Positions 52,068-56,086 of a DNA stretch of 64,000 bases are shown here, in pieces. Under the pieces are notes generated by a model, which was not told the DNA's origin, did no database searches, and worked only from the letters and a program-made list of their open reading frames with translations. Position numbers and translations under genes: made by a program. Numbering within the stretch: the stretch's first letter is position 1; the number at the start of each line of letters is the position of its first letter. This stretch comes from an uncultured Nitrososphaerota archaeon (lineage in GTDB: Archaea; Thermoproteota; Nitrososphaeria; Nitrososphaerales; Nitrosopumilaceae), in contig CAWGPD010000004.1 of the NCBI GenBank assembly GCA_963824385.1, positions 448,001 through 512,000 on the forward strand. Direction: 5' to 3'.

Positions 52068-52625
52068 GTGAAACCTAATGCATATATGAGAAAATTTTTT
52101 ATTATAATTATGAGTTTTTCTCAAATATCAACCAGACTTCAAAAAGAGTTAAAATCAAACAATCCACAGATTCGTTTTCTCTTAAAAAAAAGTCCTGGCC
52201 TTGCATTTACTACTATCAATGAGATTGCAATCAACATTGGAAAAACATACAATATCAAAGTCTCCCTTAATTTTCCTGAAAGGGGAAAGATTGAGGATTA
52301 TGATGCATATGGAACAGAAAATATCGGATTTGTATTTGAAAGAGATAGTAAAGCATTTCCTATCCCAAGAGAATCGATAAAATCAAAAGCATCTGAAATT
52401 CTAGGTAGTGTCAATATTCAAGATGCATACATGTATGAGGGAAAGGAAGGAGTCAGAGTGATAAATGATAATTATAGGCTAGACGTATTACCTGCTTCTT
52501 TACACTTGTGGGGCAAGATCAATGATGAAATTAGAAATTTTTGTGATTGGTTGCTTGAAAATTGTTATGGAGTTAAACCTGGTGTAGATGGCGCCTTTAA
52601 TGAAACTAATTCAAAAACATATTGA
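52068..52625 (+). CDS. Conserved hypothetical protein
   Basis: 185-aa ORF; true start may be downstream (MSFSQI). Confidence 0.6.
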   Translation: MKPNAYMRKFFIIIMSFSQISTRLQKELKSNNPQIRFLLKKSPGLAFTTINEIAINIGKTYNIKVSLNFPERGKIEDYDAYGTENIGFVFERDSKAFPIPRESIKSKASEILGSVNIQDAYMYEGKEGVRVINDNYRLDVLPASLHLWGKINDEIRNFCDWLLENCYGVKPGVDGAFNETNSKTY

Positions 52626-53281
52626 AGATTTCCATCAGGATCATAAATTATAGCTTTTACAGGTATTGGTAAATTATCAACTATCCATATTTTGTTTATG
52701 TGTGCTCCAATTCTGTATGACAAAAGATATGCATTTGCAGAACCAAATCCAAATGACATTTTTCCAGAATCAGTTACTTTGAGTGTTTCATGATTTGCAC
52801 CAATGTAGAGGTCACCCCATTCCGCATCTTTTGCCAGATATTTTTCATCGGTTGCATAATCTCTCATTGAAAATATGGTTTGATCAAGAACATCAAAGTA
52901 GGGTTTGACATTAGAAGAGACATCCACAAAATCATAAACTAGGCCTATTGGTACAGTCTGACTTATTTTTTCACCACCATTGCTTGGATTTATCGTAACT
53001 AACAATGATTGATTTCCTTCTTGGATTGGAAGAAATTTTAGATCAGCAGTGAAATTTGTGTTGCTAAAAGAAACCGGATTAGATGATGAATTTGTGTTGT
53101 TAAAAGAAACCTGATAAATCATTTCAGGAGTATATTCTGAACCTTTGCCCATGTGCCATTGACTTGCTTGTATAGGTACCAAGAAGATAGGTTTTACATT
53201 AGAAAGAAATGGCCATGCAAGTCCGGCAGCTGCCACTATTATAATTACAGCAAAAATAGCTACAATTCTTATGTTAGGCAT
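52565..53281 (-). CDS. Membrane-anchored hypothetical protein, homologous to the N-terminal domain of the next gene
   Basis: Shared W..GKG and N.IW….LP.PVKA..Y motifs. Confidence 0.65.
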   Translation of the reverse strand: MPNIRIVAIFAVIIIVAAAGLAWPFLSNVKPIFLVPIQASQWHMGKGSEYTPEMIYQVSFNNTNSSSNPVSFSNTNFTADLKFLPIQEGNQSLLVTINPSNGGEKISQTVPIGLVYDFVDVSSNVKPYFDVLDQTIFSMRDYATDEKYLAKDAEWGDLYIGANHETLKVTDSGKMSFGFGSANAYLLSYRIGAHINKIWIVDNLPIPVKAIIYDPDGNLQYVFELVSLKAPSTPGLTP

Positions 53282-53300
53282 GTTATCTCAATTAATTTTC

Positions 53301-54665
53301 TTATAGTCTAATACTAGATAGACTTGGATGCATTCTAACAAATAGAATTGTCAATCCAACTACAATTGCCATTATCATCAGAGAGCTCAATGGAAATTCT
53401 GGAATGGCGTTATTTACAGTGCCATTGGTCATGGTAGAATTATTCATAGAAGTGCCATTAGTCATAGTCATAGAAGTGCTATTGGTCATAGTAGAATTAG
53501 TCATAGAAGGTGTTGTTCCCATACTTGCAGGTGGCGAACCAAATGATGCTTGTGTATTTATATCAAATTGCACATTACCTGCAGTGCTGACATCTGGAGT
53601 AGAACCTTGAGCTCCTATTCCAAGGGCTGCTATTAAAACGTGTGACAGAGGAGTACTTCCGTTCAAGACAAATGTATTATCATCATCTCCAACTGGGGCA
53701 AATAGAGATGGTCTTCCCAGAGTTTGTGCAAGAGAAGATAGTTTCACTCCGTTATTATCCACTGTGAATATATCATATTGCACATTACTGACTTTTTGTG
53801 TTTGGTCATAGGCCTGCTCAAAAGATAATCTCATCTCTATCGGACAACCATTATGAGGATTAGATGGACTATACCTATATTCTACAACCATCGAGTTTGA
53901 ATCTGTTGTAGCAGTAGCGTGAACGGAATCTTGTAACATATTTGGTGCTTCACAACCTGAATTTACTCCAGCAGTTGTAGTAGAAGTCACTTGTAAGAAG
54001 CTAGGTTCTGTTTGACTATTTCCATTTTGTAACAAGTCCAAAGTATAATCGGGAGGAGGTGTTCCCGTGGTTACATCTACGTAAACAATAGCCTTTACAG
54101 GAAATGGAAGTGATGAATCGATCCAAATTTTATTATCAACATCTTTGTGCCAGCCAACTACCCATGTATCAAATGTTCCAGCTGGTTCTGTAATTGTGTC
54201 ATGGTTTAGAGGACCAACTGATTGTCCACCAACAGAACCTGTACGTCCCCATGCTGGAACATCAAAAGTTTTTGGTGAATCACTTGTTGCAAAAGCATCT
54301 AACCATGAGACTGTACTTCTGTAAACTGCAGTATAATCTGAAATATTAGGATCAAAAGTTTCTGGATCAGGAGTTATTTTCCCTATTGTCATGATTCCTT
54401 CTTGTACAATTGAGCCATCAACTGTTAGAAATACTAAATTCCAACCACTTCCATCGCTTGTCTGATTTTTCACCCAAAAACTCATCTGAAGTGGAGCGCA
54501 GTTATGCCAGTCTGTAAAGCAGACATTATAACTAAAATAATCACCTTGTTTGAGTCCCTTTCCAGGATACCATGAATCAGTAGATTTTGTAGCCTGTACA
54601 GACTGGAAAGCAACAGGCATGATTAATAAAAATGTAAAAATTGCAAATACTGCATACTTTTGCAT
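53301..54665 (-). CDS. PEFG-CTERM surface protein with Met/Thr/Asn-rich stalk
   Basis: Signal peptide; C-terminal AIPEFP + TM; MTNST-type repeats. Confidence 0.8.
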   Translation of the reverse strand: MQKYAVFAIFTFLLIMPVAFQSVQATKSTDSWYPGKGLKQGDYFSYNVCFTDWHNCAPLQMSFWVKNQTSDGSGWNLVFLTVDGSIVQEGIMTIGKITPDPETFDPNISDYTAVYRSTVSWLDAFATSDSPKTFDVPAWGRTGSVGGQSVGPLNHDTITEPAGTFDTWVVGWHKDVDNKIWIDSSLPFPVKAIVYVDVTTGTPPPDYTLDLLQNGNSQTEPSFLQVTSTTTAGVNSGCEAPNMLQDSVHATATTDSNSMVVEYRYSPSNPHNGCPIEMRLSFEQAYDQTQKVSNVQYDIFTVDNNGVKLSSLAQTLGRPSLFAPVGDDDNTFVLNGSTPLSHVLIAALGIGAQGSTPDVSTAGNVQFDINTQASFGSPPASMGTTPSMTNSTMTNSTSMTMTNGTSMNNSTMTNGTVNNAIPEFPLSSLMIMAIVVGLTILFVRMHPSLSSIRL

Positions 54666-54740: not shown

Positions 54741-54911
54741 ATGTGTGAATGTGAAAAAGTCCACATGTATGAAGTTGACTTTAAGCTTGATGGAATGATT
54801 GTAGTTCCAACACATAAAAATTGCGGAGATGCCCTTAATGAGAAACAAGTAGACAAGTTTCAAAAAGAACTAGTTAAAACATGGGGCTTCAAAGACGAAA
54901 ACGAAAAGTAA
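54741..54911 (+). CDS. Small Cys/His protein (56 aa), not in the ORF track
   Basis: MCECEKVHMYEVDFKLDGMIVVPTHKNCGDALNEKQVDKFQKELVKTWGFKDENEK. Confidence 0.65.
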   Translation: MCECEKVHMYEVDFKLDGMIVVPTHKNCGDALNEKQVDKFQKELVKTWGFKDENEK

Positions 54912-54925
54912 AACTTGGGCATTTT

Positions 54926-54945
54926 AAAAAATAAAAGAAAAAAAG
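54926..54945 (-). terminator. T-rich terminator for the minus-strand Cys-rich gene
   Basis: Plus-strand A-run aaaaaataaaagaaaaaaa, about 15 nt after the stop. Confidence 0.5.
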
Positions 54946-54959
54946 GTTACTAAAACCTA

Positions 54960-55100
54960 TTAGAATGAAGATACGTGATCTTTGCAAACTGATGCTTTGC
55001 AAGTACATTTAGCTTCACAAAGACAAGAGCCTTGCATTTCACAATCACATTCTGCATTATTTTCTTTGGATGATTCGCATCCACATGCTGCATCGGTCAT
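54960..55100 (-). CDS. Metallothionein-like protein (46 aa, 9 Cys), not in the ORF track
   Basis: MTDAACGCESSKENNAECDCEMQGSCLCEAKCTCKASVCKDHVSSF: four CxC plus C and H. Confidence 0.7.
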   Translation of the reverse strand: MTDAACGCESSKENNAECDCEMQGSCLCEAKCTCKASVCKDHVSSF

Positions 55101-55165
55101 ACTGTGGAGATCTCATACAGGGTTTTAAAAGTTATCGAATAATCACCATATTATGATTCGCTACC

Positions 55166-56086
55166 CTATGGCTGATTTTTTAGATCCCCTAGTATTTCGT
55201 TTGTAGACTGGAGTAAAGTTTTGGCTTGATTATCAATTACCACAGAGTCATGCTCCATATCAAGTCCTATTTTTAGCACATGAATAAATTCAGGATTTTT
55301 ATGAATCTGATTTTTAACTCTAAGGAGATTATTCCTGTTTACGTATCCTAGATAAAAGTAGCAATCTGAAAGAAGTAAATTATCTACAAGATATTCATAT
55401 TTTTTTGTTATAATATCAGAATTTCCATTATTTTCCACCATATTAGAAAATCCAACAGTCGACTTGACCATTCTTGAGAGAAGAGATGTTGATGATCTTT
55501 CAATACCAAGAATTTGATGTATTATAGAAAACGTTTGGTTTACTTTATCCTTCTTCATGTTTCTCATCACTTCAAGCATATGAGTTGGACTTGGTCTCTT
55601 CATATTAAGACAAAAAATAGCGTCTGCCAAAGAATATGATGCACATTTTATCCATGCCCCTGCAAAAGGATCACTGATTTTAATAGAATCTCTTGCTTTG
55701 TTAGCAAGAATCCCTGCATCAACAAGACAGCTCATAGCATGAGAGGTTGCAATTTGTTCTTTCTTTTCATTTATTTTTGACAATAACATTCTGAGCTTCC
55801 ATTGATCATCATTTATGATAGTTAAATCCTGGAGTTGGTGTAAGGTACTACTAGTAGTATCATTAAGTGAACAATGATGTATTTTGACAAAGTCATTTTC
55901 AATACGGTGAACTGATTCTCCAGATTTTTCATCCATCACAGTTATGTTATACTCACAACATTGGAAATGAGTTCCATTACTTCTACAACCTCCCAATCCA
56001 ACAGGAAAATCAGACATTGAAAGTAGAGATGGAATTTGTTTTACATCCATAAAGAACCAGTCTATGATTTTGCTATAAAGTATCAA
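55166..56086 (-). CDS. Conserved hypothetical protein, possible nucleotidyltransferase-like N-terminus plus helical domain
   Basis: GLGGCR…CCEYNITV resembles a degenerate NTase core; likely start MDVKQ. Confidence 0.55.
   Translation of the reverse strand: MILYSKIIDWFFMDVKQIPSLLSMSDFPVGLGGCRSNGTHFQCCEYNITVMDEKSGESVHRIENDFVKIHHCSLNDTTSSTLHQLQDLTIINDDQWKLRMLLSKINEKKEQIATSHAMSCLVDAGILANKARDSIKISDPFAGAWIKCASYSLADAIFCLNMKRPSPTHMLEVMRNMKKDKVNQTFSIIHQILGIERSSTSLLSRMVKSTVGFSNMVENNGNSDIITKKYEYLVDNLLLSDCYFYLGYVNRNNLLRVKNQIHKNPEFIHVLKIGLDMEHDSVVIDNQAKTLLQSTNEILGDLKNQP

Follow-up and report, generated by a model that had tools for sequence, protein, structure and literature searches.

The 46-aa cysteine-rich peptide encoded on the minus strand at 54960-55100 of the window (the whole 64,000-nt stretch of archaeal DNA that we analysed) likely represents a new archaeal family of single-domain metallothionein-like proteins, which occurs in free, membrane-tethered and pump-linked forms. 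The presence of the module throughout its taxonomic family, and the membrane-tethered form, are more striking than the free gene itself. On sequence evidence the family most likely works like a metallothionein, for which cluster binding is the defining criterion; binding of several metal ions by thiolates is predicted with high confidence, and buffering of Cu(I) is, on balance, the probable main job of the window peptide. The gene and its surroundings comprise the following features:

54960..55100 (stop included), minus strand: core free gene, 46-aa peptide, CxC-x9-CxC-x5-CxC-x3-CxC-x4-C
55123..55137, minus strand: archaeal promoter-like site, BRE-like CGATAAC plus TATA box TTTTAAAA
55107..55114, no strand assigned: palindrome GAGATCTC between TATA box and start, genus-level consensus TGGGAGATCTCCCA
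54926..54944, minus strand: oligo-T terminator-like tract between the window gene and the convergent 56-aa gene
54741..54911, plus strand: convergent conserved 56-aa gene with a CxC and two His, syntenic partner
55166..56086, minus strand: upstream 306-aa gene with no assigned function, syntenic and on the same strand as the window gene

A conserved cysteine-rich gene in the Nitrosopumilaceae

Translation of the minus strand agreed exactly with the initial annotation, giving 46 residues with nine Cys (positions 6, 8, 18, 20, 26, 28, 32, 34 and 39), four CxC motifs, one His and a terminal F46 as the sole aromatic residue. Open reading frames of 25-100 aa with at least 15% Cys and at least three CxC motifs are rare, with only six in the 1.68-Mb genome, two of which are the window gene and its own short paralogue. 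When the window gene was compared with 47 homologues of equal spacing (nine of the 57 distinct free genes, with a spacer one residue longer, were excluded from the codon count), mean pN/pS was 0.177/0.438 = 0.40 (uncorrected), third codon positions were about twice as variable (0.285) as the others (0.137 and 0.121), TGT and TGC replaced each other at all nine Cys codons, and stops broke the five remaining frames in 42, 48, 48, 36 and 33 of the 48 sequences. Given this pN/pS ratio, the TGT/TGC switching and the stops in the other five frames, the open reading frame is, at the codon level, a real protein-coding gene under purifying selection.

Conservation of the Cys across ammonia-oxidising archaea had been proposed as a check on the annotation, and all nine are kept in 88 of 88 free sequences, together with M1, D3, G7, D19 and Q23; A5, M22, G24 and K40 are nearly invariant. 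The Cys count was nine in 86 homologues and ten in two, and the spacing CxC-x9/10-CxC-x5-CxC-x3-CxC-x4-C held in all 83 modules that this pattern matched. With a nine-sequence profile, some form of the module was detected in 139/139 genomes of the family (f1, which we infer to be the Nitrosopumilaceae) across 21 genera, a count of any module form in which one genome (G002) matched via a short paralogue only. Named family members include Nitrosopumilus, Nitrosarchaeum and Nitrosopumilaceae; the host genus is likely Nitrosotalea, as the 90% cluster of a neighbouring gene includes a member named Nitrosotalea sp. Within this genus the core gene was present in 56 of 63 genomes (32 of the 33 at ≥90% completeness) and was nearly always single copy. 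Outside the family, the same profile matched 2 of 261 genomes of the order (G369 and G186), and both matches were rejected as chance, the excised regions containing no CxC-rich open reading frame; a short-paralogue profile gave no matches in 337 genomes from other families of the phylum. When 1.84 billion cluster representatives were searched with a profile, the 25 matches could all be read as free, tethered or short forms. One core gene was frameshifted (L039:1429-1567, in the 70%-complete assembly G024), either an assembly error or a pseudogene.

The gene had initially been described as hidden and easily missed by gene callers, and each description holds in part. Two Nitrosopumilus orthologue clusters in UniRef are named 'Metallothionein' (UniRef100_A0A0C5C143) and four members listed by JGI 'metallothionein 4', but most orthologues are labelled 'hypothetical protein'; the labels are automatic, have no family model behind them and do not cover the fused and pump-linked forms. 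The exact window protein is present in the public collection, as are five of seven other free copies, which speaks against a gene that is easily missed, whereas neither of two short paralogues is there. In full-text literature searches we found no paper on a metallothionein of ammonia-oxidising archaea, or of archaea at all, in a body of text that is mostly open-access, and a prior mention is possible. The word metallothionein is absent from the available portions of the N. viennensis copper transcriptome (PMC7785015), the N. devanaterra genome (PMC4836417) and a 2026 copper study (PMC13003922), those of four further papers (PMC11132505, PMC11134313, PMC8283569, PMC3407056) contain nothing on archaeal metallothionein, and the accessible part of a review of copper in bacteria names only SmtA and MymT (PMC7558416).

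Promoter, terminator and neighbourhood

The upstream element at about 25 nt and the downstream T-tract of the initial annotation were both located, the former as a TATA box (TTTTAAAA) at 55123-55130, 22 nt from the ATG and preceded on the coding strand by the BRE-like CGATAAC, the latter at 54926-54944. A TTTAAA-type box lies 28-31 nt before the ATG in 57/57 distinct free genes, and in 56 of the 57 at least five consecutive T occur no more than 45 nt from the stop codon. The spacing between TATA box and start that marks a leaderless mRNA is well established, and the 28-31 nt found here predict that the mRNA of the window gene is leaderless. The palindrome at 55107-55114 scored a mean of 3.93 over 30 related promoters against 2.93 for the best of 200 shuffles; promoters of the genus and of two sister genera retain it, but Nitrosopumilus-like ones do not. 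It is a possible operator or repressor site, and a genome scan with it revealed no regulon, the gene's own site ranking 12th of 70 matches.

Among contigs from eight RNA runs, X1, X2, X4 and X8 overlapped the gene, with neighbouring genes and intergenic DNA covered too. One piece stopped at 55103, close to the predicted start, in runs that likewise covered intergenic DNA. The readable files of the proteome supplements of PMC6593220, which are keyed by IMG numbers, gave no match to the accession or to the word metallothionein.

Of 21 loci from other genera, 19 had the convergent 56-aa gene next to the free gene, and 19 had the 306-aa gene there. None of the conserved neighbours of the core gene (the 306-aa gene, the 56-aa gene and a PEFG-CTERM-like gene) is a known metal gene. 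The 56-aa protein, with no Pfam match and 65-100% identity across the family, is possibly a small metal-binding protein; one RNA-run contig (54668-54912) spans its gene and has an A-rich loose end. The usual next neighbours of the locus are two paralogous secreted proteins of 238 and 454 aa (52565-54665, minus strand), the larger of which has a weak PEFG-CTERM match and Met/Thr-rich repeats.

Membrane-tethered modules

The same module forms the C-terminus of a ~455-aa membrane protein. This protein has a hydrophobic segment at its N-terminus, then an ectodomain devoid of Cys and a single transmembrane helix (323-341), after which come basic residues and a tail that is conserved. Because the module lies behind this single helix and the basic residues that follow it, the tethered module is likely cytoplasmic. 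This carrier protein was found in 140/140 family genomes, and its match extended through the module in at least 61 of them, counted among the matches listed, with 30 weaker matches outside that listing; the copy in the window genome has no such tail. The carrier query and its 120 closest homologues, which were picked by similarity, contained the full module in 121/121 cases, and in 119 there was no other Cys. The ectodomain has a confident predicted fold over approximately residues 30-210, for which Foldseek found nothing at E≤0.001 and VIA-align a best Z of 4.3, where a missing match does not equate to a new fold; there was also no match in Pfam or in named Atlas clusters. A strongly conserved cytoplasmic motif precedes the module in the carrier (L058:265-1638; the window genome's own copy, L084:2604-3803).

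When free and tethered copies were compared in 12 genome pairs, the tail was of the free-gene type and began at the Met of the free gene in four, these four genomes having been chosen since their tails looked free-like. In one of these comparisons (G345), the tail DNA was 95% identical to the genome's own free gene and only 87-90% to others, a pattern that suggests gene conversion. In a tree built from 83 modules (43 columns, with rough supports), at least two changes between free and fused forms were required. By these sequence relationships the free and tethered copies are exchangeable, with the tail sometimes overwritten by the free gene. A second carrier was seen in two records, in which the module sits on an unrelated two-helix membrane protein, the usual tail of which is coiled-coil-like. 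At a strict cut-off, this two-helix protein (79-161 aa, L162-L173) was detected in 66/140 genomes of the family; its gene neighbours are cyclophilin-like and FMN-reductase-like, it is unnamed in Pfam and it only rarely carries the module.

Short paralogues and metal pumps

Short paralogues of 35-46 aa with 9-10 Cys were present in 23 of the 63 genus genomes. By profile comparison they are homologues of the core form (hhalign, 95%, E 3.6e-8), without the D19, M22 and Q23 positions but with the Cys register retained. In the window genome the short copy (C1:245715-245822, outside the window) precedes copA at a distance of 71 nt; copA encodes a YHS-P1B-ATPase with CPC, YN and MxxSS motifs, a combination that we take to be the Cu+-type signature. 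We examined 30 short-gene loci. A 'CGAxH' subtype accounts for eight of these, and a P1B-ATPase lies inside the 3.1-kb locus in seven of the eight, against 1.1% of genome positions; two genomes supply two loci each and kin are not independent. The other 22 divide into 13 by thyX/HxlR/DoxX-like genes with no metal transporter (HxlR-like and DoxX-like being names by sequence reading rather than profile scan), five that match a CopC/D fusion, possibly its propeller part, and one each with a CDF gene, a NiCoT-like gene, a YHS gene and none of these; in all, 2/30 loci had no tested neighbour. The CDF case is a short paralogue directly upstream of a CDF (Zn/Co/Cd) exporter. In another genus, two of three short genes converge on a P-type ATPase.

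Comparison with known metallothioneins

A working definition of metallothioneins comprises a length of <100 aa, 15-30% Cys, CxC motifs and 9-Cys beta-type domains (PMC9781358). At 46 aa and 19.6% Cys, the window peptide lies within this size and Cys range, and the conserved Cys motifs (CxC/CC/CCC) are represented by four CxC, with 9/9 Cys invariant in 88 sequences. Composition had been taken to define the gene as a metallothionein, which it does not do alone; the metallothionein-like reading is sustained by the sequence together with the beta-domain register, weak PF00131 matches in 12 of 88 homologues (best E 0.005, the window protein having none at E≤1) and the Cu-ATPase-linked paralogues. 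The beta-domain of mouse MT-1 (PDB 1dft) shares CxC-x5-CxC-x3-CxC in an ungapped alignment to the short-paralogue profile, at an E of 0.19 that is not significant alone, and Cys-rich alignments inflate similarity; the vertebrate beta-domain and the archaeal module both have nine Cys, and a Gly in the five-residue spacer. Because the similarity is below significance, convergence is possible. The archaeal module differs from the beta-domain in an extra N-terminal CxC, 9-10 residues off, in being acidic (net charge -1 to -8 in 88/88 homologues) and in an aromatic residue in 85/88; vertebrate metallothioneins have two domains and ~20 Cys, whereas the archaeal peptide is a single domain with 9-10. 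The window protein had no match in Pfam, NCBIfam, PDB sequences or phage records, and the gene none in Rfam. Viral fusion-protein rows in the profile comparison were rejected as 14-residue chance matches, and the language-model neighbours include, as leads only, four metallothionein families at 0.75-0.86. An AlphaFold model of the peptide (88 sequences) gave a pLDDT of 54 and a pTM of 0.25, with no confident apo fold, as would be compatible with a peptide that folds only upon binding metal without proving it.

To our knowledge, characterised prokaryotic metallothioneins are few and all bacterial. SmtA/BmtA, which has nine Cys, is like the archaeal module a small prokaryotic Cys-rich metal binder; PF02069, the model for this family, matched 0/88 homologues and 0/8 short members at E≤1, and the archaeal module differs from it in having no conserved His. 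SmtA has a zinc-finger fold, MymT (~4.9 kDa) was overlooked by annotation and is copper-linked, and Csp (DUF326) is a ~120-aa four-helix bundle that is folded without metal (PMC7558416). The archaeal peptide resembles MymT in being small, prokaryotic and overlooked, whereas MymT is a Cu-induced resistance gene and the window gene a core gene with a membrane-tethered relative; neither NCBIfam nor Pfam gave a match indicating MymT homology, the presence of a MymT model in those libraries being unconfirmed. Csp of N. viennensis is the only cytoplasmic Cu store proposed for ammonia-oxidising archaea in the accessible text of PMC7785015. The likeness to Csp is storage of Cu(I) by Cys thiolates, which for the archaeal module is proposed only; DUF326 was detected in neither the window protein nor the window genome, and the lengths are 46 against ~120 aa. 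Judged by these comparisons, the family is outside SmtA/BmtA, vertebrate two-domain metallothionein and Csp.

Function of the module

We favour a metal-thiolate buffer, in which an apo-peptide without a stable fold would wrap a cluster of soft metal ions, with Cu(I) the likeliest. The nine thiolates would form one cluster; by analogy with the beta-domain of metallothioneins, it would take the stoichiometries established there, M3Cys9 with Zn or Cd and about six Cu(I). The free peptide, in which no signal peptide and no hydrophobic segment were found, would hold incoming Cu(I) and hand it over to export or cuproprotein assembly, the tethered copy would do the same job at the inner face of the membrane, and the accessory short copies would add capacity in copper-efflux islands. 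For the window peptide, we consider an always-on, low-capacity cytoplasmic buffer of Cu(I) the somewhat probable main role. Cu(I) is favoured because of the pump linkage, and because Csp and CopZ were mostly not found where the module is universal. Csp/DUF326 was detected in 2/139 genomes of the family against 44/139 in family f15, likely the Nitrososphaeraceae (43/138 without the unpublished G425, which underlies no other claim), a nearly complementary distribution relative to the module that contrasts one lineage with another rather than independent cases. HMA domains were present in 40 of 140 family genomes, each listed match lying inside an ATPase-sized frame of at least 430 aa, and no free CopZ was seen among these listed matches. 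YHS proteins or small thiols could fill the Csp/CopZ gap instead. The metal is also not clearly copper, since 13 of the 30 short loci have no metal transporter, two have no tested neighbour, one has a CDF and one a NiCoT-like gene.

The initial annotation proposed storage or detoxification. Detoxification suits the accessory paralogues better than the core gene, because the latter is single-copy with non-metal neighbours and N. sinensis is very sensitive to copper. Growth of N. sinensis stops altogether at >5 µM Cu, and Cu limitation affects it more strongly than it does Nitrosocosmicus (PMC13003922); this behaviour at both ends of the range argues against a strong storage or detoxification role. 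It fits a low-capacity housekeeping buffer, or zinc, and the invariant non-Cys residues suggest that the peptide has a defined surface or a partner and is more than a simple sponge.

The foremost alternative is that the module is a Zn3Cys9 unit with no copper role. It would then be a metallothionein for zinc or, free or tethered, a structural zinc-cluster domain (CXC/tesmin or pre-SET-like) with a protein partner. We regard this as possible, though distinctly less probable than Cu(I) buffering. Exactly nine invariant Cys suit an M3Cys9 cluster (PMC11645667), and the invariant non-Cys residues and the single-copy core status would agree with such a unit, as would a match of one of eight short paralogues to PF03638 (CXC/tesmin, E 0.086, with 0/88 core members matching) and the short paralogue directly upstream of the CDF exporter. 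Yet the short homologues, in which D19, M22 and Q23 are lost, preserve the Cys register and group with Cu-type ATPases; AlphaFold gave the peptide no confident structure (pLDDT 54); and the module has been grafted onto two unrelated membrane proteins. A part in thiol chemistry, as a redox buffer, a sink for reactive oxygen or nitrogen, or a redox switch that frees metal upon oxidation, seems improbable: metallothioneins also protect against oxidative stress (PMC7558416), and 13/30 short paralogues lie in HxlR-like/DoxX-like loci (names by sequence reading), but the spacing is CxC rather than CxxC, a sink needs no fixed nine-Cys register, and metal pumps are linked to the family.

We consider it very improbable that the gene has nothing to do with buffering metals and encodes an Fe-S carrier or a modified-peptide precursor (ranthipeptide-like), or is a chance frame over a conserved non-coding element. 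Ranthipeptide precursors are Cys-rich and similar in size to the 46-aa peptide, and the absence of any family match would be in keeping with such readings; against them, no radical-SAM or other maturase was matched among the conserved neighbours (the 306-aa, 56-aa and PEFG-CTERM-like genes), the module is fused in frame as a protein tail and is under codon-level selection, Rfam gave no match, and there is no CxxC ferredoxin motif.

Nitrosopumilaceae include the dominant marine nitrifiers, and ammonia-oxidising archaea depend on copper. The accessible text of the 2026 study holds mechanisms of copper homeostasis in these archaea to be likely and names only the Csp of N. viennensis (PMC13003922). 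As the family is apparently without Csp and free CopZ yet always carries the module, the latter is a concrete candidate for copper buffering, and the question of copper routing becomes testable with a 46-residue candidate. More tentatively, the module might be the missing cytoplasmic copper system of the Nitrosopumilaceae, a lineage-specific Cu(I) metallothionein replacing CopZ and Csp, with the tethered copy on a universal single-pass surface protein acting as a copper receptor or relay that feeds ammonia monooxygenase and other cuproproteins; we hold this extended reading to be doubtful. If true, this would be the first metallothionein family from archaea and also the first with a membrane anchor, and its beta-domain register would be like that of eukaryotes. 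A family of the archaeal core genome that comes in free, tethered and pump-linked versions would broaden the superfamily and bear on the question of an ancient or a convergent origin of the beta-domain register.

Accessory islands and other small cysteine-rich genes

The copper island of the window genome (L065:2922-14670, G000:C1) contains a CopC/D-propeller fusion, Met-rich surface proteins, a YHS protein, the short gene, YHS-CopA and an HTH regulator. A 111-aa protein (L103; G000:C1:205182-205526 and C4:174258-174509) with a Cys-rich N-terminus (8 Cys) and a helical C-terminus adjoins an HxlR-like gene; it is often found near short paralogues and is possibly a metal sensor. A further 46-aa Cys-rich protein with CxxC and CxC motifs (G000:C4, minus strand, open reading frame starting 165322 from the far end of the contig) is likely a small zinc-finger protein. 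Linkage of the module to amoA was considered and rejected, as it was seen in one of two accessory islands only. In that island (L021:164-7740, G032:C12), a Rieske gene and a second amoA (the genome has two) are accompanied by an extra core-type gene 424 nt downstream of amoA, a homologue of the membrane partner and a further copy. The genus has just one other extra core-type copy (G441, L159:7831-7974), and no amoA adjoins that copy.
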